Shown here in pieces: positions 517 through 24,044 of a DNA stretch of 64,000 nucleotides (positions are counted from its first letter, which is position 1; each line of letters begins with the position of its first letter). The notes beneath the pieces are model-generated. The model ran no database searches, was not told the origin of the DNA, and saw only the letters and a list, made by a program, of their open reading frames with translations. This DNA comes from Patescibacteria group bacterium. Lineage in GTDB: Bacteria > Patescibacteriota > UBA1384 > XYA2-FULL-43-10 > 1-14-0-10-43-13. The translations under genes were made by a program, and so were the position numbers. The DNA is taken from the NCBI GenBank assembly GCA_041674765.1, contig JBAYVE010000003.1, positions 2,040-66,039 of the forward strand, in the 5' to 3' direction.

Positions 517-1137
517 CTAGTTCTCAAGATTTCCACTCAAGAATACTCTCTGATTTACAGGTATTCCAAACACATTAATCTGCAAATGCAGATGAGGACC
601 AGTTGACCAGCCCGTATCGCCTCGAGTGCCGATAATAGTTCCTAATTCAACTTCTTGACCTTCTTCAACGGCTATCGAATCAAGATGAGCATAGATTGAG
701 GTAATATGATGACCGTTATCAATTTTTACATGCTTCCCGAAGCCGGTTGCTGTTTCGCCTGCATAGATGACTTTTCCTTTCATGAAAGCACCGACCGGAT
801 CGCCGGTATTGCCTGCGATATCGATTCCAGTATGAAATAATTGATAAGGCGAGAGTTGTCCGAATTCGAGTGAAATATTGCCAGTTGTCGGCCAGATTCT
901 TGGCTCCTCAATAACATCAATAACTGATCCGTCAGATGGGTCATAGATTTCAACTAATGAAGTTATTGGATTAATGTTTGCCAGAACATCGGAAACAAAA
1001 TTAAAGCCTGCCTGAGTTAGGATTATGACGGTAAAAACAGGCAGCAAACAGATAATAGCAATGGTCCAAAAGAAAAGTTTGATCTCCTTTTTCATTGAAA
1101 AAGCAGCAATGATCAGTTTTAATGTTTGCGGATTCAT
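517..1137 (-). CDS. M23-family metallopeptidase (cell-wall hydrolase, likely the T4SS-associated lytic enzyme)
   Basis: Motifs HTGIDIAG (HxxxD) and GPHLHLQI (HxH). N-terminal TM helix. Start overlaps the VirB4 stop (1134-1137). Confidence 0.8.
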   Translation of the reverse strand: MNPQTLKLIIAAFSMKKEIKLFFWTIAIICLLPVFTVIILTQAGFNFVSDVLANINPITSLVEIYDPSDGSVIDVIEEPRIWPTTGNISLEFGQLSPYQLFHTGIDIAGNTGDPVGAFMKGKVIYAGETATGFGKHVKIDNGHHITSIYAHLDSIAVEEGQEVELGTIIGTRGDTGWSTGPHLHLQINVFGIPVNQRVFLSGNLEN

Positions 1138-2924
1138 TTTCTTTTAGAAATAATCTCTGTTGGATCAGTGGTAATTAAAGGATGTTCTTGCTCTGAAGCG
1201 GTCACTTTAACGGCGACATGGTGCTGATCTGCGATAATAAGGGCTTCACCTCGCTCACAAGTTAGTAAAAATCTTTGCTCAAATTCACTTAGATGGAACT
1301 CTGAAGCGACACCTTTAATAGTTGTGGTATCTTGGCGCATTAATATTCTTAGAGAACTTTGAGAAGCTATTGCTCGGCCGTAGACATTGCCCAGAAAATC
1401 ATTTGCCTGTTGAGAGATGATACTTACTCCTAAATAATATTTTCTTGCTCGTCTGACTAATCCGGCAATAAATCTGGCACTTTCCTCATGTTCAAGCAAA
1501 AGCCACGCTTCATCGATCACTAAGATTCTCTTGCAAGGGTCTGATTTAACTTGGTTTTGAACGAATTGAGCAATGACCAAGTGCATGATTTGCCGCAGGG
1601 ACTCTGGTAGATCTTTGGTATCAAAGACTACCAATCTATTATCTAGTTCAATGTTCGTTTGGGTATCGAAGACCTTAGATAATGAACCGGTCGTGTACTT
1701 TTCTAGTCTTTGGCAGAGTTTAACCTGCTTCATGCTGCGGAGAGTGACATATAGATCATAAAGCTTTGGATACGTTCGGGCATTTTTCTTTTTAATTGAG
1801 TTCTTCTGTGTCCAGCCGGCTTTTTGGTAAGTCTTGATGATTGCCTTGTCTACCACAGATTTCTCTTCGGCACTCAAGCCCTCGGCCATGAGCGAGATAA
1901 TTTCTGTTAAAGATTGGACATGATCGGCGAAGCCTTTTTCCTCTGAAAAAGCATTGACTTCAAGATCGAATGGATTGATCTTTTCTTTAGAATGAACGGA
2001 CAATTTAATATATGTGCCGCCAACAGATTCTGCGAGTCTTTTGTATTCTCTCTCGGGATCGATAACGATTACTTTGGTGCCCTGCATGAGGTGTCTTAAA
2101 ATTTCGACTTTGGCGGTGTAGCTTTTGCCTGAACCTGATTGAGCGAAGAGAATACTGTTGGCATTAGGTAAACTGAATCGATCGAGAATAACCAGTGAGC
2201 TATTTGATCGGTTGATGCCATAAAGTACGCCTGATTCATGAACAAGTTCAGAAGAGATAAAAGGAAAGGTTAAGGCGGCACTCGAACTATCAAGGTTTCG
2301 CTTTTGGCAAAGCTGGTTATCACAACGGGGTAAGACTGATTGCAATCCTTCAATTTGCTGAAAGATAGCAGGCTTAGTATAGAAAAGCCTGGTTGCAAGG
2401 ACGGTATCTAAGAGTTTGATCGTTTTGTTGAGTTCAGCTAAAGAATCGGCCGATAGTGTGATATATAGGGAAACTTGAAAAAGATTCTCCTGCCCTCGTT
2501 GGATTTTGTCCCGCAGATCCATGGCTGAGTCGAGTGGATCGGTTAGCTCCGAACCAATGATCTTTCCGGCTCTCTCCATCGCTCTCTTGGTTGAGATTAG
2601 CTCGGTGATTTTTCTATTAAGCTTAGGTAAAGCAAGAGTCGCATCCACAGGCTCGATGTGGTAAGCGATGTCCACGTTGTAATTAAAATTGATGAGATGA
2701 TTTAGCCATCCGCTTGATGCAGTGTAGGGATAGCCGGAGATGAAAAGAGTTTTCACAAATCTGCCGTCAATCTCAAGATGATTTTGAAATTCTTCAAGTC
2801 CTGAATAGGTTATAAAATCGAGTTGGTCTTGGTCGCCAAGGTGGAAAGATAGAGCCAAGTCCTTTTCTTTCTGCTGAGGAGCATGCTTCTTTTTAGCTTT
2901 CTTTTTTGTTTTAGAGAAAATCAT
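1134..2924 (-). CDS. virB4: VirB4/TrbE-like conjugation ATPase (ATPase domain)
   Basis: Walker A AQSGSGKSYT and Walker B VIDEAWLLL. Size and neighbourhood (VirB6-like, pilin-like, hydrolase) fit a T4SS. Confidence 0.8.
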   Translation of the reverse strand: MIFSKTKKKAKKKHAPQQKEKDLALSFHLGDQDQLDFITYSGLEEFQNHLEIDGRFVKTLFISGYPYTASSGWLNHLINFNYNVDIAYHIEPVDATLALPKLNRKITELISTKRAMERAGKIIGSELTDPLDSAMDLRDKIQRGQENLFQVSLYITLSADSLAELNKTIKLLDTVLATRLFYTKPAIFQQIEGLQSVLPRCDNQLCQKRNLDSSSAALTFPFISSELVHESGVLYGINRSNSSLVILDRFSLPNANSILFAQSGSGKSYTAKVEILRHLMQGTKVIVIDPEREYKRLAESVGGTYIKLSVHSKEKINPFDLEVNAFSEEKGFADHVQSLTEIISLMAEGLSAEEKSVVDKAIIKTYQKAGWTQKNSIKKKNARTYPKLYDLYVTLRSMKQVKLCQRLEKYTTGSLSKVFDTQTNIELDNRLVVFDTKDLPESLRQIMHLVIAQFVQNQVKSDPCKRILVIDEAWLLLEHEESARFIAGLVRRARKYYLGVSIISQQANDFLGNVYGRAIASQSSLRILMRQDTTTIKGVASEFHLSEFEQRFLLTCERGEALIIADQHHVAVKVTASEQEHPLITTDPTEIISKRK

Positions 2925-3528
2925 ATTCTCCTGTTCTTTTTATAATTGCCTGAGCCAATGGTTGAATTTTCGCCTGTTCTGGTCGGTAGAAACTGTAAAA
3001 TAAATCAAGTATTTCGAGACTTGAGAGTTGTCTTGCAGTCATGCCAATTTTTTCTAAACCTTTAATGATGATTTCCTGTTCGAGCATAAGCTGTTCTTTC
3101 ACTGTAGGAAAATCAACCTTTCCCTTATTGTCATGAGGAATTACAAGGTAAAATTTTCGAGAGAGAATTTTATTGCCAGAAACGAGCTTTTTAATGAACT
3201 CTGAATAATTTTTAAGTTGATCCTTGTAGATTGTTTCGGTTTCATTCTTAAGTTTCCCCTCGAAGTCCTCGAGATAACGGTCAATATCAAGTTCTCTGAC
3301 TCGGACCAAGATTTGAATCGGCATTGTCAGGCTGTTTAAGAAAGCTTGAAAAGCGTCAACGATCACATCCTGTTCTTCCTCGCTTTGGAGTTCAAAGTTT
3401 AAAGAAGAGGTCGATAGAATTGTACGATAGCGATCATCCGGCAAGATTAGAATTCCGTCTCTTACCTCCTTGATCCCGATTTGAGTTCGAGCTGAGCCGT
3501 TAGTTTTCGGCTTTTTTGAGTTCAACAT
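2911..3528 (-). CDS. VirB4 N-terminal-domain-like protein (VirB4 appears split into two ORFs)
   Basis: 205 aa with IKEVRDGILILPDDRYRTILSTSSLNFELQSEEEQ, resembling the N-terminal region of Gram-positive-type VirB4 (PrgJ/TcpF). Overlaps the ATPase ORF by 14 nt. The downstream ATG has its own AGGAGA RBS. Confidence 0.45.
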   Translation of the reverse strand: MLNSKKPKTNGSARTQIGIKEVRDGILILPDDRYRTILSTSSLNFELQSEEEQDVIVDAFQAFLNSLTMPIQILVRVRELDIDRYLEDFEGKLKNETETIYKDQLKNYSEFIKKLVSGNKILSRKFYLVIPHDNKGKVDFPTVKEQLMLEQEIIIKGLEKIGMTARQLSSLEILDLFYSFYRPEQAKIQPLAQAIIKRTGEYDFL

Positions 3529-4006
3529 TTAAACCTCCTTTCTTTGATGGTTTAAAAGAAAGCCTTACCAAATTTTCATTGAATAGCTGATCAATCTTTA
3601 TCTGGTCATGCAAGCTGATTGTTTTGGTGTTCTTGCTTTCCACTTTAATTTCTGTTTTCTTTGCTTCAGTAACTTTTGGTTCTTTGATAATAATTTCTCG
3701 ATGGATTGGGTCGTTTTTGGTAAAGATGTATCGCCTTGGACGGGAGTTGAAACGAAGTAAAATGACTAGCCATTCACCCAAGATCTTGCCGTTAAATCGC
3801 AAAGATAAACCGCCAAAGAAGATGAACTCGATCGCAATCAAGGTCATCTTAATAGTACCAAAGTGCATCTTGGGCATGACAACGGCATAGATCAGAGCGC
3901 CTATTACCATAGACATTACAAGGAGTACGATCTGGGGCAATGTTAAATTTCCGGCGATTCTATCTTCAACGGTGGTGATTTGGGCTGGCACTACTGTAGT
4001 TTTCAT
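3500..4006 (-). CDS. small 2-TM membrane protein at the VirB3/PrgI-like position
   Basis: 168 aa with two hydrophobic helices, then a Lys/Glu-rich tail. Sits between the VirB6-like and VirB4 genes, overlapping both. Confidence 0.35.
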   Translation of the reverse strand: MKTTVVPAQITTVEDRIAGNLTLPQIVLLVMSMVIGALIYAVVMPKMHFGTIKMTLIAIEFIFFGGLSLRFNGKILGEWLVILLRFNSRPRRYIFTKNDPIHREIIIKEPKVTEAKKTEIKVESKNTKTISLHDQIKIDQLFNENLVRLSFKPSKKGGLNVELKKAEN

Positions 4007-5286
4007 CTGGCGCTTGCTCCTCTCTTAACAGTTTCCTTAACAACGGTGGTATTCTTGGCATTGGATACTGAAATTACATTCATGATCTGGCCGCCAAGCT
4101 TTTTCATCATATTTGAAGATCCGCTCATTAAGGCTAGTTGGATTGCTGTTCCTGTGCTCTTCAGGAGAATCGAGAACAAGGCAATACCGATAAGGATTGA
4201 AATGACCGGATTTGCTCCGACCTGTCCGGGGACTGTAAGGAAAGCGGAAGCAAGCTGAATTATGACTACATGGATAAAAACGGTAAAAATGGTGATGAAA
4301 TATGCCTTTGTTAGATTTGCGGCAAAATCTGCCATACTTGGGATTAGCGCAATTGCGCAGACAAGCGGAGAGATTACAGCACCGAAGGCAAGAATCATAA
4401 GGCGCGAGATGTAGAAAAGAAGTAAGACTGCTGCAAGGATGATGAAGATAATAACGAAGATTAAGGTAATGAGCGCAGTTGTGCCACTCAGAAAACTTGC
4501 CGGATCAAAAGCATTTAATATCCAAGCTGTACCTAATCCTCCAGTGGCATTTAAAATGGAATTAACTAATGTCTGGCAAAGCTGAATAACCCAATCAATC
4601 AAAAAGATTGAGGTGTTAGCTCCGACAAAAGCTAGGGCAACTTTGGGCCAAAGATCTTTCAAACTCACTTCTTCAAGGCCAAAGGTGCTTCCGCTCATCA
4701 CTCTAAAGCCAAGCAATGCAATGATGATCGCAAAGAGTGAATCTGTGATTCCGACCATGACTAACCAAAAATTAAAAACAACAGAATTTGAAGCTAATGA
4801 TGGAGTAGAAGTCAGAAACCAAGTTATGCCGTCAAGGACCGGTTTAGTGGCCGACTGGATGATATTTTGCAAGAAGCCAAAGATAGCATCAATAATGACT
4901 TGGGCTAAAGAGTTATCAGATTCTACTGGCTCAATCGGACTCATATTTAGAGCAGTTCCAGTTGCGTTATTGGCAGGCTGTGTCATCGCGCTATTTAGCA
5001 TTGAGCTAAAAACAAAAGCCCCAATAACGATTATTAAACCAATTAAGGCGTTTCTAATCGTTCTCTTTGCTTCATCGAGAGCAGCAGGATTGCCGGTTGA
5101 AGTGATATACAAATACCCGCCACGAACAAGGAAGAAAACCACAGCAACAGAAGCAAGACCGATCAAAGCGGTCATGGCGTCATGAGTGAAATTCTCAACC
5201 TCTGGATTGGAAGCGGCAAAGGCGATGGCGGGAGAAAACAGAATAGCGCAAAAGAGAATAATTTTAGTGATTACTCTTTTCATCAA
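4003..5286 (-). CDS. polytopic membrane protein, VirB6/TrbL-like, with an N-terminal pilin-like domain
   Basis: 427 aa with a signal peptide (AFAASNPE) and many TM helices. N-terminal segment RGGYLYITSTGNPAALDEAKRTIRNALIGLIIVIGAFV is paralogous to the adjacent 116-aa pilin-like protein (GGIGYITSSGNPENLDRSKKTLVYSSFGLAISIAAFV). Confidence 0.55.
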   Translation of the reverse strand: MMKRVITKIILFCAILFSPAIAFAASNPEVENFTHDAMTALIGLASVAVVFFLVRGGYLYITSTGNPAALDEAKRTIRNALIGLIIVIGAFVFSSMLNSAMTQPANNATGTALNMSPIEPVESDNSLAQVIIDAIFGFLQNIIQSATKPVLDGITWFLTSTPSLASNSVVFNFWLVMVGITDSLFAIIIALLGFRVMSGSTFGLEEVSLKDLWPKVALAFVGANTSIFLIDWVIQLCQTLVNSILNATGGLGTAWILNAFDPASFLSGTTALITLIFVIIFIILAAVLLLFYISRLMILAFGAVISPLVCAIALIPSMADFAANLTKAYFITIFTVFIHVVIIQLASAFLTVPGQVGANPVISILIGIALFSILLKSTGTAIQLALMSGSSNMMKKLGGQIMNVISVSNAKNTTVVKETVKRGASAR

Positions 5287-5290
5287 GGAA

Positions 5291-5641
5291 TTAGTTGAAT
5301 GCGTTCTTTGCTAAATCAGTAACAATGTTAGAAATAACGAAAGCAGCAATTGATATTGCTAAACCAAAACTTGAATAAACAAGTGTTTTCTTTGAACGAT
5401 CTAAATTCTCTGGATTGCCTGACGAAGTGATATATCCAATACCGCCTACTACAAAAAAACCGGCTGCTAATAGACCGGCAATGGTGACGAGGACTTGGAT
5501 AACGTTTTGTGCAAAGTTTTGTACTTTTGCGATATCGCCAGAATCAGCAAATGCCGGTGTTGCTGAAATTAATAGTACGATAAAGGAGAGACCAAGAGGC
5601 CGGAGACGTTGTAACATGATAACCCAACTTTCTCCCCTCAC
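5291..5641 (-). CDS. pilin-like protein (VirB2/TrbC-like), first gene of the T4SS-like operon
   Basis: 116 aa with a signal peptide ending ...PAFADSG and two hydrophobic helices. Shares a motif with the N-terminus of the next gene. Confidence 0.5.
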   Translation of the reverse strand: MRGESWVIMLQRLRPLGLSFIVLLISATPAFADSGDIAKVQNFAQNVIQVLVTIAGLLAAGFFVVGGIGYITSSGNPENLDRSKKTLVYSSFGLAISIAAFVISNIVTDLAKNAFN

Positions 5642-7958: not shown

Positions 7959-9227
7959 TCATATTACGCCGAGAGTTCTCCCTGCATAAGCAAGTGCATC
8001 GAGCAATTGCTCGATTTTTGATTCGTCCTTTGCGATGGCATAACAGATATTAATCCGTACCATCGCCTCGTCGATTCCGACGGCAGGTGCGAAATACGCT
8101 GGTGCGAAAAGTCCGCGCTCAAGCAGAATCTCCGCTGCAGCCTTCGCCTTCTGCTCTTCAAAGAAACGGACAGGAAGGATTTGGGTTTCGCAACCCAAGG
8201 TGTCAAAACCCAGTTCTTTGAGACTGCTATTGATATTATCAGCAGCCTCAAGAACTTTCGTTCGGCGCCAAGGTTCCCGTTCAAGAAGATCGAAGACCTC
8301 GAGCAGAGCCGCCGCATTGCCTGGCGACATCGATGTTTGGTATACGTGTGTTCGGCACTGGACTCTCATTTCCTCGCAAAAGGCATGAGTGCCGGTAATG
8401 TACCCACCTTCAACACCGAAAGCCTTGCTTAAGGTACCAATGTTGAAATCAACGCCGTCTTCGACGCCAAAATGTTCGGCCGTGCCTGTTCCAGTGTGCC
8501 CGTACAAGCCAGCGCCATGTGCGTCATCGACGTAAACGGCAGCACCATAGTTATTCGCAAGTGCAACAATTTTGTCGAGGGGAGCCAAACGACCATGCAG
8601 AGAGAAGACTCCATCCGTCAAGATGATCTTGATTGGTGCGGTCGAACTCTGAAGTCTCTTTTCAAGATGATCCATATTGCGATGCTTGAAGCGATTGGCT
8701 TCGACAGCACCGCCGGAAAGTCGAGAAGTTGCCTGACGGATCCCGTCAATGATACTAGCGTGAACCAGCTCATCGAATATAAGATCCACAGGCTGATTGA
8801 TCGACTCCATAACAGTCGGATCCAGAAGACGGATCGCACTTCGAAGTGGTGGTGATGCCAAAGCGACAATAATGCCGATATTGGCAAGATAACCACTGGA
8901 GAATAGCACTGCGTCTTCGGTGCCCTTGAAACGGGCGATCCGTTGCTCGAGCTGTTGATGAAGACTGGTTGTCCCAGACGTAATCCGGGAACCGCCACTG
9001 CCTACACCTAAGAGTGAACTTGCAGCATTAGCTGCCGCAATCACTTTGGGGTGTTGACTGACAGAGAGATAGCTGTTTGTCGAAACATCCAAGCATTCTC
9101 TGTCATCGATAATTGCTGTCCCATCATTATCACGACTTATGATCGAATGATAATGTGGGTAGAATTTGCCTGCCTCAAGTGTTTGCTGGCTGGCATTCAA
9201 ACGGTTTTTCAGCGCTTCGCTAATCAT
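7959..9227 (-). CDS. PLP-dependent class-II aminotransferase of the alpha-oxoamine synthase family (AONS/KBL/SPT-like)
   Basis: GTLSKAFGVEGGYITG PLP-lysine motif and the DDAHGAG motif. The track start (TTG, 9242) was replaced by the ATG at 9227, which is preceded by GAAGGAGGA. GC content is about 50% against about 35% in the flanks. Confidence 0.85.
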   Translation of the reverse strand: MISEALKNRLNASQQTLEAGKFYPHYHSIISRDNDGTAIIDDRECLDVSTNSYLSVSQHPKVIAAANAASSLLGVGSGGSRITSGTTSLHQQLEQRIARFKGTEDAVLFSSGYLANIGIIVALASPPLRSAIRLLDPTVMESINQPVDLIFDELVHASIIDGIRQATSRLSGGAVEANRFKHRNMDHLEKRLQSSTAPIKIILTDGVFSLHGRLAPLDKIVALANNYGAAVYVDDAHGAGLYGHTGTGTAEHFGVEDGVDFNIGTLSKAFGVEGGYITGTHAFCEEMRVQCRTHVYQTSMSPGNAAALLEVFDLLEREPWRRTKVLEAADNINSSLKELGFDTLGCETQILPVRFFEEQKAKAAAEILLERGLFAPAYFAPAVGIDEAMVRINICYAIAKDESKIEQLLDALAYAGRTLGVI

Positions 9228-9396
9228 CTTGTCCTCCTTCAATCATCGACAAGGCGATAATGGCAATTTGACAGCAAATGCTGCCGATTTGATTGCCAGC
9301 CTCTACACAGTCTGTTCTCAGTATCTCAAGTTGCCTTATTATAGCGGCAGCTTGATTCACCTGAGTTTCAGAACACTCAAGCTTGTCTGCTGCCAT
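9220..9396 (-). CDS. 58-aa Cys-containing small protein translationally coupled to the alpha-oxoamine synthase
   Basis: ATG at 9396 is preceded by AAAGGAG. Product MAADKLECSETQVNQAAAIIRQLEILRTDCVEAGNQIGSICCQIAIIALSMIEGGQDD. Stop overlaps the AOS start (ATGATTAG). No DSL phosphopantetheine motif, so not a canonical ACP. Confidence 0.4.
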   Translation of the reverse strand: MAADKLECSETQVNQAAAIIRQLEILRTDCVEAGNQIGSICCQIAIIALSMIEGGQDD

Positions 9397-9640
9397 AGGC
9401 AACTCCTTTCAGTTTTCAATGTACTCTACGCTCATTGTATCATAGCGAGAGATGTTATATCTTACCATAATAGCGTTAGTTTGTCAATCGGTTGGGGATT
9501 GATTTGATCTGTTTCATGGCCATTGATCCCTCGCCATTGGAAGTTCTTACAAAAAAAGCTTGCATAAAGGAAGAAAATCTGGTATGGATTACAATAGTAG
9601 CATTTGCTAAGTACACAGACATCACCAACCGGAGGGAAAC

Positions 9641-10735
9641 ATGATCACTTGGCTTCCGCATCTAGCGCACGAACCGTTCCCTTATGATCCGGAATGCCAT
9701 CTTATGTTTGATCGCCACCGAGCTGAAAGTAATATTTCATACTTGGTCTCAACATTTGGCATGAACGATGAAAGGGTTGCTTATCTCTTGGATATATTTG
9801 CTGACTACTCAGAATCCATGTCTTTTGTTAGAAAAGCTGGTTTAATTCAAGAACAAGCCGAATTGTTGAGCATAGTGGATATGAACTATGCCGGTACGGT
9901 TAGTAACGAAAATGAATTCAATACTCTTATTAAAAGGACTATTGATATTCAAAAACCGACTGTCTTTCTCTCAGACACTCATTCGAGTACTGGATTAGTG
10001 CTTAGTGTTTACGAGAAGAACGTGAGGGGTAATACAAAATTTCGGACAGGGGTTGTATGTGTCGATTCACATGCTGACCTGTACGACCACTCACAACCAC
10101 TTTGGAAGGGTAATGTATTTTCGTCACTGATCCATGCCGGCACCGTTCAAGCGATGGTTATTGTCGGAGTACCTCATTTTCGTCAAATTAGTATCCGAAG
10201 TGAATTGACCAATAGTATGAATCAACGAGTGGTTATGCTTGAGGACTTAAATGACCGAGATGAGGTTAATCAAGCTATTGCTTGGCTGGGTGATCAGAAT
10301 ATCAATCAGGTTTTCTATTCGATCGATCTTGATGGTTTGACCACAAGAAAATTGCAGTTGACTGCAATGGAATATTGTCCTTTTCATATCTTGCTCAATC
10401 TTGCAAAATATGAATTGACAGGGCTAAACAAAGATCAGATCGATGAACATCTTGATGATATCATTCGTCCCCCCAGCCATCAGCAACTTGGACGACGAAA
10501 TTTGTTTCACATTGGTGATAACGGATTAAACACTGGAGAACTAATCAAATTTCTTGAAATTTGTTTTGGTTTCTTCAGTCATAAAGGAATCAATAACGGT
10601 ATTAAGGTCGATCGACATTCGATCGTCGGCGATATCGTTGAGCTTTTTGGCCCGGATGTCGGGTCAAGGACAGCGGTCGAAGTCGCTAAAATTGCGCAAG
10701 CATTATTAGTGAACTCTGCCAAATACTCGAAGTGA
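9641..10735 (+). CDS. arginase/ureohydrolase-fold metallohydrolase-like protein
   Basis: Degenerate arginase-family motifs in the canonical order: LSDTHSS (cf. GGDHS), VCVDSHADLYD (cf. DAHxD), YSIDLDGL (cf. SxDxDxxDP), VGDIVELFGPD (cf. DxVExnP). GC-rich, same island as the radical-SAM genes. Confidence 0.5.
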   Translation: MITWLPHLAHEPFPYDPECHLMFDRHRAESNISYLVSTFGMNDERVAYLLDIFADYSESMSFVRKAGLIQEQAELLSIVDMNYAGTVSNENEFNTLIKRTIDIQKPTVFLSDTHSSTGLVLSVYEKNVRGNTKFRTGVVCVDSHADLYDHSQPLWKGNVFSSLIHAGTVQAMVIVGVPHFRQISIRSELTNSMNQRVVMLEDLNDRDEVNQAIAWLGDQNINQVFYSIDLDGLTTRKLQLTAMEYCPFHILLNLAKYELTGLNKDQIDEHLDDIIRPPSHQQLGRRNLFHIGDNGLNTGELIKFLEICFGFFSHKGINNGIKVDRHSIVGDIVELFGPDVGSRTAVEVAKIAQALLVNSAKYSK

Positions 10736-10750
10736 AGAAAGGAGCAGCCG

Positions 10751-10825
10751 ATGAAGTCCATCTTCAAAGCCAAAGTCAAATCTTTGGTCGAAAAACCGAT
10801 TGCCTATAACTGTCGCCGGGGCTGA
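10751..10825 (+). CDS. 24-aa candidate precursor peptide MKSIFKAKVKSLVEKPIAYNCRRG
   Basis: Not in the 60-aa ORF track. ATG is 7 nt after an AAAGGAG RBS. Lies between the arginase-fold gene stop and the first radical-SAM/SPASM gene, and is followed by a GNRA-tetraloop hairpin. Confidence 0.4.
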   Translation: MKSIFKAKVKSLVEKPIAYNCRRG

Positions 10826-10868
10826 ACCGCGGTGAACGACTCATGAGAGTCATGGACTAGGGGGTGGC

Positions 10869-10890
10869 GAAAGCCGCCCCCTTCTTGCTA
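10869..10890 (+). promoter_or_regulatory. stable stem-loop (9-bp stem, GAAA tetraloop) between the candidate precursor peptide and the rSAM gene; no U-tract
   Basis: GGGGGTGGC-GAAA-GCCGCCCCC: 8 Watson-Crick pairs plus one G-U. Followed by the RBS GAGAGGAG of the rSAM gene. Geometry typical of precursor/enzyme stoichiometry attenuators in RiPP operons. Confidence 0.45.
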
Positions 10891-10907
10891 CAAGAGAGGA
10901 GACTGCT

Positions 10908-11975
10908 ATGGGAGAACTGAGTGTGATCGCAATCACCTTCACTAATCGTTGTAATCTCAGCTGCGTACATTGTGGCCGAGAACAGGATTTGTCTCACTGC
11001 ACAGAAAAAGATGCGGCCTTCTTTATCAACATATTGAAAGAAGGACGTACGCTTGGAGCAAATCAGGTCAACATAACCGGTGGCGAAATTTTCTGCCGCC
11101 ATGATTGCTTTGACTTGATCCAAGGTGCAATTGACCTCGGGTACTTCGTAAGTATTGAGTCAAATGGTACATTGATTACACAACCATCAATTGACCGTTT
11201 ATCGTCTTATGGCGACGCCATAAGAGTCTCAATCAGCGTTGATGGTCTGACCGCCGAGACTCACGATGCCATTCGCGGTACCGGAACCTTTGATGTCACT
11301 ATGGCTACTATTCAAGAATTGAAGAAAGCTGATGTGCCTACAAGGATAATCACGGTATTACACCGCCAAAACATCGGACAAATCCCTCAGATGGCCAGAC
11401 ACTTTGTCGATGATATGGGTCTGGGCTTTCGCTTGTTGCCAAATATTATGGAATATGGCAAGGGCGTATATGCCTGCAACACCTACGGCATTGAATTCGA
11501 TGAAGCAATGGCACTATTAGAGGGATTCTACTTCGATTTCCTGCGGGAAAAAGCATCGGACAATGTCACGCTGGAGATAAACGTGGCTTTGGCGCCGATG
11601 GATATCAATCAATTTTGTCTCTGTCCTTGGGGAAAGGCAATGGTTGGTATTGGTCCAACGGGAATTGTAAGCCTTTGTCACGTTTCATATCATGATGAGC
11701 GATTTGTTTTCGGCAATTTGGAAAATACTTCGCTTACGAAGATATGGAATGAAAGTACCATGCTGGATGCGTTCAGAAATCTGGACACCAATACCCTGAA
11801 AGGTGTCTGCGGCAACTGTCTTGCGCGAGAAATTTGCCGTGGTGGCTGCCGACTGCATGCTATTACGAAGTACGGAGATTTTCTCGCTCCCGATCCTTAC
11901 TGCCAGACGGTCTATGATCTCGGGAAATTCCCAGATTATGCCCTGGATAATGATGATAAGGATTGCTCTTTCTGA
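10908..11975 (+). CDS. radical SAM enzyme with a C-terminal SPASM domain (peptide-modifying maturase family)
   Basis: CNLSCVHCG (Cx3Cx2C). GGEIF SAM-binding motif. C-terminal CGNCLAREICRGGCRLHA and CPWG, plus a GNLENTSLTKIWN SPASM-like segment. Confidence 0.85.
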   Translation: MGELSVIAITFTNRCNLSCVHCGREQDLSHCTEKDAAFFINILKEGRTLGANQVNITGGEIFCRHDCFDLIQGAIDLGYFVSIESNGTLITQPSIDRLSSYGDAIRVSISVDGLTAETHDAIRGTGTFDVTMATIQELKKADVPTRIITVLHRQNIGQIPQMARHFVDDMGLGFRLLPNIMEYGKGVYACNTYGIEFDEAMALLEGFYFDFLREKASDNVTLEINVALAPMDINQFCLCPWGKAMVGIGPTGIVSLCHVSYHDERFVFGNLENTSLTKIWNESTMLDAFRNLDTNTLKGVCGNCLAREICRGGCRLHAITKYGDFLAPDPYCQTVYDLGKFPDYALDNDDKDCSF

Positions 11976-11988
11976 TAGGAGTATCAAG

Positions 11989-13341: not shown

Positions 13342-13377
13342 GGCGCCGAGCTTACCACTCGGCGCCTTTGCTTTATC
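13342..13377 (+). terminator. rho-independent terminator closing the GC-rich island
   Basis: GGCGCCGAG-cttacca-CTCGGCGCC perfect 9-bp stem followed by TTTGCTTTATC. Confidence 0.6.
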
Positions 13378-14320: not shown

Positions 14321-14377
14321 ATGATCTAAAAGTTAAATGCCCACCAGTCAATTGATGACTGATGGGCAAGTGTAGCA

Positions 14378-16141: not shown

Positions 16142-16642
16142 ATGGAAACGAATTTTCGTAAACTGACAATCGAGGATCTACCACATCGAATAAAATGGCT
16201 CAATGATCCGGAGATAAATAAGCACCTTGGTACTAGGGTTAGAACTGGCACTGATGAAGAATTTCACAAGAAATGGTTTGAGTGTTATTTTAGTGATGAT
16301 TTCAGAGAGATATTTACAATTGAAGTGGATGGCAAGCCAGTTGGTCAGGTGGGACTGCTTGATATCAACCCACTGGATAAGAATGGCTGTCTATATATTA
16401 TAATCGGTGAAAAAAATTATTGGGGTAAGGGTATCGGATCGCAAGCAATGGAATTCATCCTTAATTATGGATTCGATACGCTAGGGCTTCACAAAATATG
16501 GCTAGAAGTTTATGCCAGTAACTCAGCAGCAATAAAGCTGTATAAAAAGTTTGGTTTTAATAATGAAGGTATATACAAGGATCAAGTTCTCTATCCAGAT
16601 GGATTCGTCGATGAAATAAGAATGGCTAAATTTCAAAATTAA
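16142..16642 (+). CDS. GNAT N-acetyltransferase, RimJ/RimL/MccE-C-terminal-domain type
   Basis: Acetyltransf_3-like layout: IGEKNYWGKGIGSQAMEFILNYGF...LHKIWLEVYASNSAAIKLYKKFGFNNEG. Confidence 0.75.
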   Translation: METNFRKLTIEDLPHRIKWLNDPEINKHLGTRVRTGTDEEFHKKWFECYFSDDFREIFTIEVDGKPVGQVGLLDINPLDKNGCLYIIIGEKNYWGKGIGSQAMEFILNYGFDTLGLHKIWLEVYASNSAAIKLYKKFGFNNEGIYKDQVLYPDGFVDEIRMAKFQN

Positions 16643-16656
16643 CGTCCATGTAAAAA

Positions 16657-17631
16657 ATGAGTCAGGAAAAAATATTAAATAAATTGAAACCAGGAAAACT
16701 ACTCTTAAGTATTGACCTTGATAATACCTTAGTGAATCGGGACAAGGGAGCAAATTTTGTTAAAAAAGAATCGCTCGATTTGCTTAAAAAGATTAAGGAA
16801 CTTTCTGATGTTAAATTACTCATAAATACCGGAAGAGAAAATTATGGATATCGTTCCTTTGCTTCTAGCCTGATTGATCCTAAAAACGCAATCATAGGCT
16901 CAGGAAGCGTAATAATTCATAACGGTGAATATTTTCTAAACGATAAATCATTGATTGATAAAGAACTTGTCGAGAAAATAATCGGATTGGTTAATGAAGG
17001 CAATCTAGAATTTGTTGATATGGCACATTTCTCTGACCGGTCAATTATTTCTAATCCTAGCTTTCGAGATAATGCTTTATACTTAGCTCAAAATCCTGTT
17101 GAGTGGTTTACCCAAGAATCCAGGAATGAAATACTCTTAGGAGGCAGATCATCTACCGATAAAGTATATAGAATCGAATATCCTGTTTATAAAGATAATA
17201 ACAAAGAATTTTTTAATGCTCTGCGGGATAAGCATCAAAACTGCATAAGATTTTTATCAAAAATTATCGGCTTTCCCCTTGATGAAAACAGATACACTTT
17301 AAAACGAAAAGCTCACTTTTGTGATCAATATAAAGGCAAAGTACTATTTGCAAGATTAGAAGTGTCAGAACAGATTGTTAATAAAGGCACCGGATTGCAT
17401 AAATGGTTTGAGATTGAAGGCGATAATAAAATCAACGTTTTACATATCGGAGATAGTGATAAAGGAATAGTTAACGATACGATTATAAAAAAGGAAATAC
17501 CTGAATCACTAATCGTTATGGTTGGTGAAAAGTTCGATAAGAGTAATCCATTTGTTGATGTCTATTTTGAGGGAGATGTAGATGAGGATGTATATCAGAT
17601 TTTGAAATTAGTATATGAAAGATATGCGTAA
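16657..17631 (+). CDS. HAD-superfamily hydrolase (Cof/sucrose-phosphatase-like)
   Basis: Motif I LSIDLDNTL (DxDxT), motif II LINTG, late GDSDKG motif. Confidence 0.6.
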   Translation: MSQEKILNKLKPGKLLLSIDLDNTLVNRDKGANFVKKESLDLLKKIKELSDVKLLINTGRENYGYRSFASSLIDPKNAIIGSGSVIIHNGEYFLNDKSLIDKELVEKIIGLVNEGNLEFVDMAHFSDRSIISNPSFRDNALYLAQNPVEWFTQESRNEILLGGRSSTDKVYRIEYPVYKDNNKEFFNALRDKHQNCIRFLSKIIGFPLDENRYTLKRKAHFCDQYKGKVLFARLEVSEQIVNKGTGLHKWFEIEGDNKINVLHIGDSDKGIVNDTIIKKEIPESLIVMVGEKFDKSNPFVDVYFEGDVDEDVYQILKLVYERYA

Positions 17632-19053: not shown

Positions 19054-19368
19054 ATGATACTAACTAAAATTATTATGATCTCAATGTTAAATGATAAATT
19101 TAGAAAGAGCGGGTTCGGAGTTACCTTAACTTGCGGAGTGCAATCAGTCACTGATTTGAATGGCTTAATGAGAGCGATTCGAGAGTATGACAACTTTACA
19201 GAGGATAACGATCCGTACGGCGAGCACGACTTCGGTAAGCTAGATTGGAACGGCGATAAAGTCTTTTGGAAGATTGATTACTACAATGAGACATTCGACG
19301 CTTGGGAGGATCCGCTCACTGCTAAGTGCAGACGCGTGATGACTGTGATGCTCGCTGATGAATATTAG
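19054..19368 (+). CDS. small protein, DUF3768-like (NDPYGEHDFG / WKIDYYD / MLA.EY motifs)
   Basis: Recalled DUF3768 signature (NDPYGEHDFG...WKIDYY...TIMLAxEY). This family is mostly seen on plasmids and ICEs. The true start may be an internal Met (MISML or MLNDKF). Confidence 0.5.
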   Translation: MILTKIIMISMLNDKFRKSGFGVTLTCGVQSVTDLNGLMRAIREYDNFTEDNDPYGEHDFGKLDWNGDKVFWKIDYYNETFDAWEDPLTAKCRRVMTVMLADEY

Positions 19369-19377
19369 GTTACTTGG

Positions 19378-19416
19378 GCCTGGGAGTTTATAAGATTCTC
19401 AGGCCTTTTATTTTTC
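19378..19416 (+). terminator. rho-independent terminator after the first DUF3768-like gene
   Basis: GCCTGGGAG-tttataagatt-CTCAGGC stem with G-U pairs, followed by CTTTTATTTTTC. Confidence 0.55.
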
Positions 19417-19443
19417 ACTATAAATTAATAATATAAGGAGATT

Positions 19444-19761
19444 ATGAATCAAGAAGATAAATTTCAAGAAATGGCTAGAAGGAACGATGTCGCAAGGAAG
19501 TTGGGACTTGGACTTACGGTTACCAAGAAAGCAGCTGAACTTCCGGATTTAGAAGAGTTACTTTACGCAGTCCGATCATTTAACAAATTTAGTACGAAGG
19601 ATGACCCCTACGGTTGGCATGATCTGGGTAGGCTTGAATGGAGAGATCAAAGCGTTCTTTGGAAGATTGATTATTATGATCCGACACTTCACTATTTTGC
19701 AGATCCACTATCTGATGATTGCAAGAGAGTTATTACGGTGATGTTAGCTAGCGAGTACTAA
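19444..19761 (+). CDS. tandem paralog of the DUF3768-like protein (about 50% identity over the C-terminal 85 aa)
   Basis: DDPYGWHDLGRLEWRDQSVLWKIDYYDPTLHYFADPLSDDCKRVITVMLASEY aligns with the upstream paralog. RBS AAGGAG. Confidence 0.5.
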   Translation: MNQEDKFQEMARRNDVARKLGLGLTVTKKAAELPDLEELLYAVRSFNKFSTKDDPYGWHDLGRLEWRDQSVLWKIDYYDPTLHYFADPLSDDCKRVITVMLASEY

Positions 19762-20481: not shown

Positions 20482-21246
20482 TTATAGAATAGTTGAAACA
20501 GAATTGCTAACAATATCATCCTTGGCAACAATAATTATTTTAATATTTTCCATTTCCTCATTTTCAGTAAGCATTCTTTTCGTGAACTTCCTGATTTGGG
20601 TTATTAATTCAATTTCACAGATTAAAATAACTATCGGGAAATCTTCGCCAGTATTATCTTCCCAGCTGTTTGAAAAGTAAAAATCAAAGTAATTTTTAAT
20701 TCTTTTTCTAATTGAGTATGTTGGCAAGTTAGATTCGAATAACTCAACGAGGTAATGTTTTCTTTTGCAACCTTCCGCTTTTTCAATCACTAGATCAAAA
20801 GTGGTTTCGGTTAAAAAATAGTAATCCGAGCTGAGACTAGAAAAGCCGGAACTCGTTGTTACTTTATATGATACATTCTCATCACTCTTATTCCTAAAAT
20901 TAATAAAAATATCGCCGATCAATTGGCATTTGGTGATACAAGAGTCTTTGCGATCTTTTTCCCGATGCAGTTTCTTGAGCTGCTCTTTAGAACAATCAAT
21001 TAATGTCTTAATGAGTTTTATTCCGTTTGGTCCCATGTAGTAAACAGCCGGTTTAGTTCTCTCTATATATTTTTCGCAATAGTTTCTGTTTAGGTATTCT
21101 TTTTCTGTTAGGTCTTTAAGCCATTCGTTTATTAGTCTGTAATCTTTGTGTTTTAGGAGAGCTTGAATTTGGATCCGGTTTAGGAATCTGAAGTGATAGA
21201 TATATTTAAGTATTTCTTGTTGTTTGTTTGTTATTTTAGGTATCAT
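20482..21246 (-). CDS. replication-relaxation family protein (conjugative/mobilisable-element associated wHTH protein)
   Basis: N-terminus ITNKQQEILKYIYHFRFLNRIQIQALL matches the recalled replication-relaxation family pattern (LTxRQxEILxxLxRFRFLTxxQIxxL). Confidence 0.5.
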   Translation of the reverse strand: MIPKITNKQQEILKYIYHFRFLNRIQIQALLKHKDYRLINEWLKDLTEKEYLNRNYCEKYIERTKPAVYYMGPNGIKLIKTLIDCSKEQLKKLHREKDRKDSCITKCQLIGDIFINFRNKSDENVSYKVTTSSGFSSLSSDYYFLTETTFDLVIEKAEGCKRKHYLVELFESNLPTYSIRKRIKNYFDFYFSNSWEDNTGEDFPIVILICEIELITQIRKFTKRMLTENEEMENIKIIIVAKDDIVSNSVSTIL

Positions 21247-21285
21247 ATTTTTTTTGAGGGAGCATTACTTTTTTATTTTCCCTTA

Positions 21286-21321
21286 CACCTACCATACCAT
21301 ATGTATATGTAATGGTAAGTG
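21286..21321. promoter_or_regulatory. imperfect inverted repeat around a CATATGTATATG core, upstream of the replication-relaxation gene
   Basis: CACCTACCATAC-CATATGTATATG-TAATGGTAAGTG; the arms are near-complementary (about 10 of 12). Confidence 0.35.
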
Positions 21322-21361
21322 GACAATATTTTGTAATTTTGATCTTAAAATAGGTCTCTTT

Positions 21362-21383
21362 TTATCCTAGCCTGCTAGGATAA
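21362..21383. repeat. perfect 10-bp inverted repeat TTATCCTAGC-CT-GCTAGGATAA overlapping the stop of the T4CP-like gene
   Basis: Read directly from the sequence. No U-tract on either strand, so unlikely to be a plain intrinsic terminator. Candidate protein-binding or oriT-like palindrome. Confidence 0.5.
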
Positions 21384-24044
21384 TTCTGCAAACTGATTAG
21401 TCTCTTTTGAGGAGACTTTCTGCGCCTTCTTTACAGCCTTTTTCTTTGTAGTTTTTACCTTAACCTCTGGCTTAGGTTTACTGGATTCATCCAGCCGACC
21501 AGTAAAGAGTTTGTCCAAATACTCTTCGACTTCTTGTCGAGGAGTAGCATTGTGTTTTCTGGAATGTTTCAGGACTTCTTCTTTTATGATTCTACTTGGT
21601 TCATTATCCAGTGGTACAGTCACGCCAGAAAAGGCATTCTCACTTTTCTCGTTCGTGAGCTTCATAAAGAAGCGGTATGGAGGGAGATTTACGATATCTC
21701 CCTTTTCAACTTCCGGCTCCATGAAGGGCAGGATAAACTTCTCGTCATCAGGACTGGCCTTGAGACAAATAATTGTATTTGCATTGCCGGCGACAACTTT
21801 TAGAATATGCTGGTCTTCGACTTGAGCAATGTTTTGGTGAGAAGCAATCAAAGAAACATGGTATTTTCTGCCTTCTGAGGTAATCTCCGAAAACCGAGGG
21901 GTAGCAAAGTTTTGAAACTCATCAACATAAAGAAAGAAATCTCTGCGTTCTTTCTCCGGTATCTTTGTTCTCTGATAAGCGGCCATCCAGATGAGGGAAG
22001 TCAAAACAGTACCAAAGAAGAAGCTCATATCCTCGCCCAGATCGCCCTTGGATAGGTTTACAAGCAATATCTTGCCTTCATCCATAATTTGGCTAACGCT
22101 GACCGTACTCTTCTCCTGCAAAAGAATGTGGCGAGACATTTTGGTAGTAATGAAATTGCCTAGTCTCTGGGTTAGTGGAGCAGTCACGCTTGATAACTGC
22201 ATCGTGCCCAAAAGGGCGAATTCCTTATTCCAAAACTGTTTTAATACTGGATCCTTTAGATTAGCGGCAACTTTCTTTTGATAGCCTTTATCAGTCAACA
22301 ATCTTTGCAATGTAAAAAGGCTTGGATTTTCGGTATGTAATGCCGTAAGAGTTGTATTCCTTAAGATATGCTCCATTCTCGGACCCCAATATTCTTTGGC
22401 AGTAATTTTGGCAAACACACCCAAGACCGAGCTTGTGATCCATTCCTGCTCATCCTCTTTATCGGTAAATTTGATGCCAGGGGCAAGAATATTCAAACCA
22501 ATCGGCCATTGTCGATCAGAGGGGTCGAAAACTATTACATCTTCCTTTCTGTTTTCTGGAATGATTTCTAGGAGTTCCTGCAAGAGATCGCCATGCGGAT
22601 CGAAAACGGCCAAGCCTTTGCCGTTTAGCATGTCCTGATAGATGGCGTTTTTAAGCAAGGTAGTTTTGCCCATGCCAGTTTTACCGATGATATACATGTG
22701 CTTTTGGCGCTGTTCTAGTGTTAAACCAATTGGGACATTACCGTTATCGTATTTGTTCACACCAAAGATTACATCGTAATTATTATCGGTTTGGCGAAGT
22801 GATAAAGGTGCTGGCAGTTCTCTGCTTTTCACTCTCATTAGGTCAGGTGTATCGGAATCAGCCCGAAATGGGAAATGATAGAGGGCCGATATCTCCGAAG
22901 TCGAAAGAATCATCGATGATGAAACAAGATGATATTTAAACTGCCATAGTCTAATCCTCTGGCTAATGTTGCCGAGCAAATTTATTTTAGTAGTTATACT
23001 TTGTCCAGTTGAGTGCCTGTAACAAGCAAACGAAGAGATTAGTCCTTTCTGTCTTTCTTTTAATTGATGCTTATTTGTCACAATCAACGCCCTGATTGAG
23101 GTCTCAAAGAGCGGTTGTGAAAGCTTGGTCTTCACAAAGCCTTCAATTTCTTTTGATTCTGGAGTGGATGCAATCTTTGTCTTTGATCTTTCCGGCAATT
23201 TGCCTTCATTCCCTGTCACAAATTCAGCAGCAACAAGCAAAGGCATTACAGCGATTTTGGCAACGCTATCTAAAATATTTGCCAACACTGAAAAGAGATC
23301 GATCTTACCCTTACCACTTAGCCATTCGACAAACCGATCGCGTTTGATCGAAAGTTTTATTTCTTGGATTTTATCCCTAGTTAATCGTTGTTCTATTCGA
23401 TTTAACGGTTTTAAGACTATTTGGATGACGGCGAGTTCATCCTCTTCAAGTTTGCCCATATTATTTACCATATATGCCAACGGGTCATGCTTTTTTAGAT
23501 CTTTGTGTTCGCCGATTGGAAAGGCAAAATGTTTAGAGAGCTTAAAATCTAAAACTTTCACCTCTTTTTTCTCGATATCGGTTTCGACTAGATAATCGGA
23601 TGTTTTCTTAATCTGGATGCCTGGTATATAAGTGCGTAAATTAGTTTCGAAAGAGTTAACTAAATCATCAGGCATTCGAATTAAAAACCGGATGCCTTTT
23701 TCTTTGGTAGAAACAATCTCAAATGATGCTATTATTTGCCTAAGCAAAATTTTATCAATCCATGAGTTATTGTCCAAAAGATCGTTGATGAGATTAAAGA
23801 GCTGAGTAGTCGAGATCGCTGTAATTTCAGTTTCTTTAGGAGGAGTAATCTCCAAGAAAACAGATGATTCTTTGAGCTGGCGAATCAGAATTATTAATTT
23901 AAAAATGACCGCAAGGACAATCCAGGCGGACACAATATATGCAAGATAAACTAGTACTTGAATTGCAATTTGATCGAAATGGTATCGATTAAAAAGTTGA
24001 GTGATCTGATCTAAAGTTGGTGTTTCTGTTGGCGCTAAATGCAC
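21375..24044 (-). CDS. type IV coupling protein-like ATPase (VirD4/TraD/TraG-like; AAA_10-type)
   Basis: N-terminal TM helix. Walker A IIGKTGMGKTTL followed by AVFDPHGDL (cf. T4CP DPKGD), Walker B FFLYVDEFQNF, and SLIASHQN. 889 aa. Confidence 0.55.
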   Translation of the reverse strand: MHLAPTETPTLDQITQLFNRYHFDQIAIQVLVYLAYIVSAWIVLAVIFKLIILIRQLKESSVFLEITPPKETEITAISTTQLFNLINDLLDNNSWIDKILLRQIIASFEIVSTKEKGIRFLIRMPDDLVNSFETNLRTYIPGIQIKKTSDYLVETDIEKKEVKVLDFKLSKHFAFPIGEHKDLKKHDPLAYMVNNMGKLEEDELAVIQIVLKPLNRIEQRLTRDKIQEIKLSIKRDRFVEWLSGKGKIDLFSVLANILDSVAKIAVMPLLVAAEFVTGNEGKLPERSKTKIASTPESKEIEGFVKTKLSQPLFETSIRALIVTNKHQLKERQKGLISSFACYRHSTGQSITTKINLLGNISQRIRLWQFKYHLVSSSMILSTSEISALYHFPFRADSDTPDLMRVKSRELPAPLSLRQTDNNYDVIFGVNKYDNGNVPIGLTLEQRQKHMYIIGKTGMGKTTLLKNAIYQDMLNGKGLAVFDPHGDLLQELLEIIPENRKEDVIVFDPSDRQWPIGLNILAPGIKFTDKEDEQEWITSSVLGVFAKITAKEYWGPRMEHILRNTTLTALHTENPSLFTLQRLLTDKGYQKKVAANLKDPVLKQFWNKEFALLGTMQLSSVTAPLTQRLGNFITTKMSRHILLQEKSTVSVSQIMDEGKILLVNLSKGDLGEDMSFFFGTVLTSLIWMAAYQRTKIPEKERRDFFLYVDEFQNFATPRFSEITSEGRKYHVSLIASHQNIAQVEDQHILKVVAGNANTIICLKASPDDEKFILPFMEPEVEKGDIVNLPPYRFFMKLTNEKSENAFSGVTVPLDNEPSRIIKEEVLKHSRKHNATPRQEVEEYLDKLFTGRLDESSKPKPEVKVKTTKKKAVKKAQKVSSKETNQFAELS

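Follow-up and report, generated by a model that had tools for sequence, protein, structure and literature searches.

A candidate radical SAM peptide cassette and its probable short precursor gene on a Patescibacteria contig

Gene callers routinely miss the precursors of RiPPs, peptides that are made by ribosomal synthesis and then modified post-translationally, and without a precursor such clusters look like orphan radical S-adenosylmethionine (SAM) enzymes. A case of this kind is presented by a stretch of 64,000 nucleotides from a Patescibacteria group bacterium (NCBI GenBank assembly GCA_041674765.1, contig JBAYVE010000003.1, positions 2,040 to 66,039 of the forward strand), referred to below in its full length as the window, in which an unannotated open reading frame (ORF) of 24 codons precedes two genes for radical SAM enzymes with SPASM domains (rSAM-1 and rSAM-2). 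Is this ORF the substrate gene of the two enzymes, a regulatory leader, or a reading frame that arose by chance? A first-pass annotation had taken it for the precursor of the adjacent enzyme pair, and this central claim is supported by conservation, by the coding pattern and by the translation signals described here. We put the probability at roughly 0.85 that the ORF is the precursor gene of a RiPP-type cassette whose product is modified by the two radical SAM enzymes. The features on which the argument depends are as follows.

9641 to 10735, + strand: arginase-fold (ureohydrolase) enzyme, 364 aa, proposed peptide arginase (PF00491, 32.8 bits, cutoff 22)
10738 to 10744, + strand: Shine-Dalgarno site AAAGGAG of the precursor gene, with a 6-nt spacer to the ATG
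10751 to 10825, + strand: candidate precursor peptide gene MKSIFKAKVKSLVEKPIAYNCRRG, ATG, 24 codons, then TGA
10908 to 11975, + strand: rSAM-1, radical SAM/SPASM enzyme, 355 aa (Pfam Radical_SAM and SPASM; CxxxCxxC from residue 15)
11989 to 13335, + strand: rSAM-2, 448 aa, with an N-terminal domain resembling a RiPP recognition element (RRE), a radical SAM core and a seven-Cys SPASM domain

The peptide gene and its relatives

The ORF lies in the 172 nt that separate the arginase-family gene (9641..10735) from rSAM-1 (10908..11975), in agreement with the first-pass annotation, which had also described a 24-aa ORF with a strong ribosome-binding site; both the ORF (10751-10825) and AAAGGAG (10738-10744) were confirmed. 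The encoded peptide contains a leader motif, F5-x-x-K8-V9, and a core, Y19-N20-C21-R22-R23-G24.

DNA of homologous loci was gathered by exact protein look-up, by a genome scan, by a metagenome scan and through homologues of the arginase-like protein. The genome scan was run with the full rSAM-2 alignment, which includes generic radical SAM motifs, and the true relatives numbered 3 among the 80 loci listed. The metagenome scan used a degenerate DNA pattern, written by hand to encode FPxGxx[HY]xCQA[LM]E, the specificity of which had been validated first, and returned 26 loci. Full-length homologues of rSAM-2 number 383 at E ≤ 1e-10, the best 120 of them scoring at least 263 bits each, and grouping at 90% identity gives at least 120 homologue clusters.

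In all, 21 distinct homologous peptides were obtained, the window's own and 20 further ones, all of them 23-32 aa long and encoded in clusters whose enzymes are 34-74% identical to those of the window cluster (34-71% for rSAM-2). The hosts include Patescibacteria, an alphaproteobacterial metagenome-assembled genome (MAG), a MAG labelled Clostridiales and others; the family is found mainly in the ultra-small Patescibacteria. The 19 peptides collected first align with almost no gaps to the consensus M-K-x-x-F-x-x-K-[VIL]-(9-10 residues)-[YF]-N-C-x-x-G-stop, in which F5, N20, C21 and G24 are invariant, and two peptides fetched later match the same pattern. Cys21, invariant in the 19 aligned peptides, is also present in both later ones, and it is the only Cys of each peptide except in three variants (L001, L108 and L117), which have two. 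The C-x-x-G spacing is fixed, and Gly is the last residue in every member of the family. The Tyr/Asn pair and the Cys that had been picked out as possible targets of cross-linking in the window peptide are, in the family as a whole, the invariant core [YF]-N-C-x-x-G.

Pairwise comparison of the five conserved codons (F, Y/F, N, C and G) gave 264 identical, 247 synonymous and 14 non-synonymous cases, the last all being Tyr/Phe exchanges, and TGA, TAA and TAG all occur as stop codons across the family. GGAGG or AAGGAG lies upstream of the start in 14 of the 14 loci displayed (the window and 13 others); in L097, the Shine-Dalgarno site was assigned, by reading the sequence, before an upstream TTG. 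Its sequence and the comparison with its relatives show the small ORF to be coding DNA under selection, equipped with a strong ribosome-binding site.

The position of the gene is informative as well. A small ORF stands beside rSAM-1 and rSAM-2 in every locus with the region on the contig, the sole exception being the degraded locus L094, so that the proposed check of its conservation next to homologous radical SAM pairs is passed in about 20 independent loci. Its place is upstream of rSAM-1 in the clusters that contain the arginase-like gene and in L003, L108 and L117, and between rSAM-1 and rSAM-2 elsewhere. The peptide gene has thus moved between lineages but never leaves the radical SAM pair. 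In L094 (about 9084..9850), the N-terminal part of the arginase-like gene runs straight into the C-terminal third of rSAM-1, with no peptide gene, which reflects either a deletion or a misassembly. L111 (6067..6282) carries the precursor gene twice in tandem, the products ending in AYNCRRG and SYNCGRG, with a hairpin after the second only.

These comparisons bear directly on whether the ORF is merely a chance reading frame, with the hairpin that follows it serving as the terminator of the upstream arginase-family gene. A listing of 12 kb contains 183 ORFs of at least 20 aa, and ORFs of 20-30 codons are thus very common; in addition, when six of the family peptides were looked up in a collection of 15 billion proteins, none (0/6) had been called as a gene. 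However, the same peptide recurs in about 20 divergent clusters with substitutions that are predominantly synonymous, and clusters that have no arginase-like gene upstream and keep the peptide between the radical SAM genes still carry the hairpin after it. Because the comparative data reveal coding conservation together with a movable position, a chance ORF can be regarded as virtually excluded. The combination of ORF and hairpin is likewise more than chance, because both recur in every homologous cluster with the relevant region on the contig.

The radical SAM enzymes and the arginase-fold enzyme

Gene maps made with tblastn place rSAM-1 and rSAM-2 next to each other and in the same direction in every locus long enough. 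rSAM-1 has neither an N-terminal recognition domain nor an N-terminal extension. Its best NCBIfam matches are AhbD, MftC, PqqE and ScmF, all far below their cutoffs (134 bits against 381 for PqqE and 136 against 265 for MftC), and its best relative among solved structures is PqqE (6C8V, 1.7e-24).

The true start of rSAM-2 is the ATG at 11989, which follows AGGAG, and not the GTG at 11803. Its invariant Cys residues are C99, C103 and C106, in a CxxxCxxC motif, and C346, C363, C401, C404, C410, C414 and C433, the last seven of which make up a full SPASM set. A protein identical to rSAM-2 has been recorded from a Patescibacteria MAG. The top NCBIfam matches are FibroRumin, PapB and SCIFF, the best at 137-142 bits against cutoffs of 340-400; PapB scores 137 bits against 340, and SCIFF scores 105 against 425. 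A profile of rSAM-2 matches CteB (5WGG), the SCIFF thioether synthase, at 5.6e-45, and by this comparison of sequences the homology to CteB is clear at the level of the superfamily. The AlphaFold2 (AF2) model has a predicted local distance difference test score (pLDDT) of 92, and residues 2-83 (pLDDT >90) form a beta-beta-beta(-beta)-alpha-alpha-alpha domain. The best full-length fold matches are TigE (8VPO), CteB and ChlB, all three of them RiPP maturases with an RRE; anSME and SuiB come next. A Pfam scan gave no PqqD match in rSAM-2; as modelled, its N-terminal domain is an RRE-like recognition element.

The gene upstream of the ORF, earlier called hydrolase-like, encodes an enzyme of the arginase fold. 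A single-sequence search of the PDB with this protein returned nothing meaningful; a profile, on the other hand, matched formimidoylglutamase, arginase and guanidinobutyrase, and the AF2 model (pLDDT 90), which includes about 100 additional, helical residues at the N-terminus, has only ureohydrolases as its best fold matches. A search for homologues of the protein yielded only 17. In an alignment of 16 of them, H114, D142-x-H144-x-D146, S227-x-D229-x-D231 and E334 are invariant, and these residues, as read from the alignment, contain the full six-ligand set of a binuclear-Mn ureohydrolase, intact in the window protein. One homologue, in L112 (5001..6104, 31% identity), lies outside any radical SAM cluster on a contig with ribosomal protein S26e and phage-like genes, and the arginase-like family is therefore not strictly tied to the cassette.

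According to the tblastn gene maps, the arginase-like gene is present in a subset of the clusters only, and its presence tracks the penultimate residue of the peptide, a relation that the first-pass annotation had missed. Eight clusters contain it (the window, L001, L086/88/106, L097/113, L110, L111, L114 and L115); they encode nine distinct peptides, which end in C-[RCGK]-R-G, and the penultimate residue is Arg in 9/9. Twelve clusters do not have it on the DNA fetched (L003, L004, L006, L090, L091, L096/99, L102, L104, L108, L109, L116 and L117), and the penultimate residue of their twelve distinct peptides is Met (8), Gly, Lys, Gln or Ala, with Arg in 0/12. In seven of these twelve (L006, L090, L091, L096/99, L108, L116 and L117), the upstream DNA firmly excludes the gene. 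Two clusters, L116 and L117, were fetched after the rule had been stated, and both obey it. In a neighbour-joining tree of rSAM-2, the arginase-lacking clusters occupy two or three separate positions, which means that the pattern is not the result of one inherited event.

Because the gene follows the penultimate Arg so closely (9/9 versus 0/12), we consider it probable that the arginase-like enzyme converts Arg23 of the peptide to ornithine. The simplest reading of the other lineages is that, having no arginase, they encode another long unbranched side chain at the penultimate position. Action of this enzyme family on such a substrate is known from KgrD, a PF00491 arginase that acts on the radical SAM-cross-linked enteropeptin precursor (PMC12703449).

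The hairpin and the genomic neighbourhood

Between the precursor gene and rSAM-1 lies one further element.

10860 to 10881, + strand: GC-rich hairpin, consisting of GGGGGUGGC (10860-10868), a GAAA loop (10869-10872) and GCCGCCCCC (10873-10881)

This hairpin begins 34 nt past the stop codon and comprises 9 pairs, one of them G-U; an A-U pair may close a tenth. The 9-bp GC stem with its GNRA loop had been recognized correctly at the first pass, but not the sequence UUCUUGCU after the stem, a weak U-rich tail where no U-tract had been seen. Folding of a 185-nt region gave z = -3.84, with 0/200 shuffles equally stable, and an Rfam scan of 9000-12000 returned sub-threshold noise only.

A stable single hairpin is present 3' of the peptide gene in 18/18 loci tested, with folding free energies of -12 to -30 kcal/mol and at a distance of 3-50 nt from the stop codon. 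Over the 75 nt past the stop, the mean z of the 18 loci is -3.4; all beat their shuffles, and in 15 of the 18 no more than 7 of 300 shuffles are as stable. About half of these loci have at least 5 T within the 8 nt after the hairpin. The sequence of the hairpin is not conserved, and the loops of the relatives vary in both length and sequence. Because neither sequence nor loop is conserved and yet the stable fold is found in all loci, conservation concerns the strong stem behind the precursor gene and does not extend to the GAAA loop. The hairpin looks more like a leaky terminator or 3'-end stabilizer than a GNRA-specific processing site, and by analogy it could plausibly raise the level of the precursor transcript over that of the enzymes. 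Stem-loops between precursor and maturase genes occur in bacteriocin operons, such as sboA-albA of subtilosin and nisA-nisB, in which the precursor gene is short and highly expressed. The window is similar to these in having a stable hairpin between a short precursor gene and the enzyme genes, but its U-tract is weak.

The arrangement conserved in all loci, in which a strong ribosome-binding site, a short ORF and a terminator-like hairpin follow one another, would also suit a regulatory leader peptide, whose translation, or arrest at its C-terminal motif, would tune the hairpin and so control the radical SAM genes. In four loci, the hairpin lies 3-6 nt past the stop, within the footprint of a ribosome, and an ABC-F gene is part of the cluster; such ribosome-dependent attenuation is seen upstream of many ABC-F resistance genes. 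However, the genes that the ORF precedes are those of the radical SAM enzymes; the ABC-F gene does not follow it and often lies on the opposite strand, and in most loci the hairpin is 11-50 nt past the stop, outside the footprint of a terminating ribosome. No conserved anti-terminator pairing was seen, although no formal covariation search for one was made. The tandem genes of L111, with a hairpin after the second copy only, are typical of duplication of a precursor gene. Furthermore, attenuation leaves the co-variation of Arg and arginase (9/9 versus 0/12) unexplained, and rSAM-2 carries a peptide-recognition domain while no other candidate substrate is encoded nearby. We therefore regard a regulatory leader in place of a precursor as very improbable; the two roles are, however, not mutually exclusive.

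Beyond rSAM-2, the cluster continues with two genes that had not been recognized as its conserved parts in the first-pass annotation, and with two terminator-like hairpins.

13342 to 13366, + strand: terminator-like hairpin whose tail is T-rich, separating rSAM-2 from the S66 gene
13403 to 14320, + strand: MccF-type serine peptidase of family S66, 305 aa (Peptidase_S66 and S66C matches)
14338 to 14368, - strand: terminator-like hairpin, likewise with T-rich tail, in the spacer of the convergent S66 and ABC-F genes
14378 to 15991, - strand: ABC-F ATPase, ribosomal-protection-like (NF000355, 405.7 bits, cutoff 380)

Among solved structures, the S66 protein is closest to MccF (1.5e-52, as against 1e-19 to 1e-27 for LD-carboxypeptidases), and its gene lies directly downstream of rSAM-2 in most clusters of the Patescibacteria type. 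The ABC-F gene, which is convergent with the S66 gene in the window, is a neighbour of the radical SAM pair in almost all clusters whose flanks are visible, L110 and L117 excepted, and it can lie to either side of the pair and on either strand. This neighbourhood suggests that the ABC-F and MccF-like proteins protect the producer and that the product is toxic to translation, although the S66 enzyme could instead trim the peptide. GNAT acetyltransferase and HAD hydrolase genes (16142..17631, + strand) follow just past the ABC-F gene, and GNAT genes are also found near the cluster in L114 and L116. In L115 (7602..11561, from the MAG labelled Clostridiales), there is no S66 gene, and a 1319-aa nonribosomal peptide synthetase with condensation, adenylation and thioesterase domains comes directly after the cluster.

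The peptide might alternatively be a sacrificial scaffold for a small intracellular molecule, in the manner of pyrroloquinoline quinone (PQQ) or mycofactocin, with the two radical SAM enzymes cross-linking its C-terminal residues and the S66 enzyme, and the arginase where present, releasing the modified unit. rSAM-1 is closest to PqqE, MftC and AhbD, the peptide is of the size generally known for PqqA and MftA, the invariant core residues fall within the last six positions, and the cluster has a peptidase in its operon and no exporter. Nevertheless, rSAM-1 misses the PqqE and MftC equivalog cutoffs, and conserved redox partner enzymes of the sort that accompany PQQ and mycofactocin genes are not found nearby. 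The distribution is patchy and on mobile elements, and the nearly universal ribosome-protection-type ABC-F protein and the MccF-like enzyme resemble immunity genes. A scaffold of this kind is, in our view, distinctly unlikely.

The surroundings of the cassette point to mobility. In the window, genes of type IV secretion lie on one side (517..5641, - strand: an M23 peptidase, a VirB4/TraG-type ATPase, a TrbL/VirB6-like protein and a VirB2 pilin), and on the other are two DUF3768 genes, a relaxase-like Replic_Relax gene and a TrwB/VirD4 coupling protein (19054..19761, + strand, and 20482..24044, - strand). The GC content at about 7.5-16 kb is 44-51%, as against 32-36% in the flanks, and other copies of the cluster adjoin integrase, resolvase or type IV secretion genes. 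A conjugative or integrative element probably carries the cassette as cargo.

Three other proposals for this region were set aside. A BioF/Kbl-type acyltransferase gene dependent on pyridoxal phosphate (7959..9242, - strand) was considered as a member of the cluster, but it is absent beside every other copy; it belongs to the alpha-oxoamine synthase family, below all equivalog cutoffs, is divergent from the arginase-like gene and has, at 51%, the highest GC content of the region. A defence system was considered, and PADLOC gave generic viperin and ATPase similarities only. Radical adenosylation leading to a peptide-nucleoside like microcin C, prompted by the MccF-like enzyme, has no MccB and no other support, and we treat it as remote.

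A proposed pathway and its relation to known systems

On the preferred reading of the ORF as a RiPP precursor, the pathway might proceed as follows. The N-terminal half of the peptide (F-x-x-K-[VIL]) would serve as a leader and be bound by the winged-helix, RRE-like domain of rSAM-2. This enzyme, similar to CteB, PapB and TigE, would then cross-link the core by means of a 5'-deoxyadenosyl radical, most likely forming a thioether from the invariant Cys; we give a thioether at Cys21 an even chance. The preferred acceptor would be the alpha-carbon of the C-terminal Gly24, three residues past Cys21 and beside the free carboxylate. We favour it because the C-x-x-G spacing is fixed, because Gly is always last and because PapB links Cys to a C-terminal residue, and a bond between the sulfur of Cys21 and the alpha-carbon of Gly24 is, on this analogy, only a guess. 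PapB can join Cys to a residue that bears the free C-terminal carboxylate (PMC12373016). The PqqE/MftC-like rSAM-1 would carry out another radical modification, the site of which might be Asn or the invariant aromatic residue.

Where it is encoded, the arginase-fold enzyme would hydrolyse the penultimate Arg23 to ornithine; in clusters without it, this position is taken by Met, Lys, Gln, Ala or Gly. By partial termination, or by stabilizing a short transcript, the hairpin past the stop codon would let production of the precursor exceed that of the enzymes. Protection of the producer from a product acting on translation would fall to the ABC-F protein and the MccF-like S66 enzyme, with trimming by the S66 enzyme as the alternative, and the cassette would travel on conjugative or integrative elements. 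That the product acts on translation is a tentative proposal, and we hold it to be doubtful. More specific, and somewhat less likely again, is the possibility of a very small, doubly cross-linked ribosome inhibitor of the form [YF]-N-C-x-(Orn/Met/Lys)-G, with the ABC-F and MccF-like proteins as immunity, which the episymbiont could use against competitors or hosts.

Several points weigh against this interpretation. The chemistry is drawn wholly from homology and context, and all NCBIfam equivalog cutoffs of known maturases are missed widely. TigE, the nearest structural relative of rSAM-2, makes cyclopropyl groups and is not known as a thioether synthase, so that the fold alone does not fix the chemistry of rSAM-2 and cross-linking of the Cys is not guaranteed. 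Among the cluster genes scanned there is neither an exporter nor a dedicated leader protease of any well-known type, and a stand-alone PqqD-like protein to partner rSAM-1 is missing as well; the roles of the ABC-F and S66 proteins are read solely from their neighbourhood. The tail UUCUUGCU falls narrowly below the threshold of the terminator scan. As for the arginase rule, the contigs of L004, L102 and L104 start inside rSAM-1 and that of L109 has about 400 nt upstream, and in these four the absence of the gene was assumed from gene order; the exact test for the association, a hand calculation, gave p ~3e-6 uncorrected for phylogeny.

Recognition of the precursor turns at least 120 clusters of rSAM-2 homologues into a defined, testable family. 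Its members combine two radical enzymes with a very small core, and the alternation of Arg plus an arginase with Met, Lys or Gln amounts to a natural experiment, from which a product containing ornithine is predicted. Patescibacteria, usually thought to be biosynthetically poor, would gain a mobile natural-product cassette. The adjacent ABC-F gene suggests a ribosomal target and thereby a lead for an antibiotic scaffold and for new radical SAM chemistry at a C-terminal motif. If the product were indeed a ribosome inhibitor, it would represent a new class of translation-targeting RiPP antibiotic, spread by conjugative elements among the candidate phyla radiation and a few other lineages.

How does this cassette compare with known systems? 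The enteropeptin (kgr) system of Enterococcus cecorum consists of the precursor KgrA, a radical SAM sactionine (thiomorpholine) synthase, KgrD and an Fe-S methyltransferase (PMC12703449, PMC12395415). The two systems are alike in having a short precursor, a radical SAM enzyme proposed here to act at the single Cys, and an arginase of the PF00491 type, not of the OspR type, which in enteropeptin converts a nearby Arg to ornithine and is predicted to do so here. In enteropeptin, however, Arg directly precedes Cys (K-G-R-C) and is itself the acceptor, whereas here Asn precedes Cys and the co-varying Arg is at Cys+2. There are also two radical SAM/SPASM enzymes here, no Fe-S methyltransferase is found among the cluster genes scanned, the window cluster carries ABC-F and MccF-like genes, and the arginase-like protein is highly divergent. 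The hosts are Patescibacteria, unlike the Firmicutes hosts of enteropeptin. Arginases of the OspR type (PF12640: OspR, FlmR, OhkR and PbsE) are better known and, as binuclear-Mn ureohydrolases, catalyse the same reaction as that proposed here, Arg to ornithine in a RiPP core, but the window protein has no PF12640 match and no EEH(N/H)EAF motif; it has DxHxD and DxD motifs and the additional helical region of about 100 residues at its N-terminus.

With CteB and PapB, and thus with SCIFF/ranthipeptide and sactipeptide maturation, the cassette shares the combination of an RRE, a radical SAM core and a seven-Cys SPASM domain in rSAM-2, as well as an invariant core Cys. It differs from SCIFF in its one Cys (two in three variants) in place of six and in scores below the equivalog cutoffs, and from the PapB substrates in having no C-x3-D/E repeats. 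In contrast to SCIFF and the ranthipeptides, a second radical SAM enzyme is obligatory here, and the thioether is hypothetical. The PQQ and mycofactocin pathways resemble it in a peptide of about 24-30 aa with functional residues at its C-terminus and in a SPASM radical SAM enzyme, rSAM-1 being most like PqqE and MftC. Unlike them, it has no separate PqqD or MftB, no Glu...Tyr pair and no C-terminal Val-Tyr, and its genomic context is of the immunity type and not of the redox type. The S66 protein is nearest to MccF among solved structures, and both occur in clusters for peptide products; in contrast to microcin C, there is no MccB-type adenylyltransferase, and the peptides end in Gly, not in Asn.

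Literature searches, in full text, for this combination of genes found nothing, and none of the curated protein-family models searched describes the peptide family, the window peptide matching no NCBIfam model. By the defining tests of each system compared, the cassette falls outside it, and it represents an undescribed family within a known kind, the radical SAM RiPP pathways. Overall, it is closest to enteropeptin in its logic, to the SCIFF/ranthipeptide maturases in the ancestry of its enzymes, and to PQQ and mycofactocin in the size of its peptide and the concentration of features at the C-terminus.

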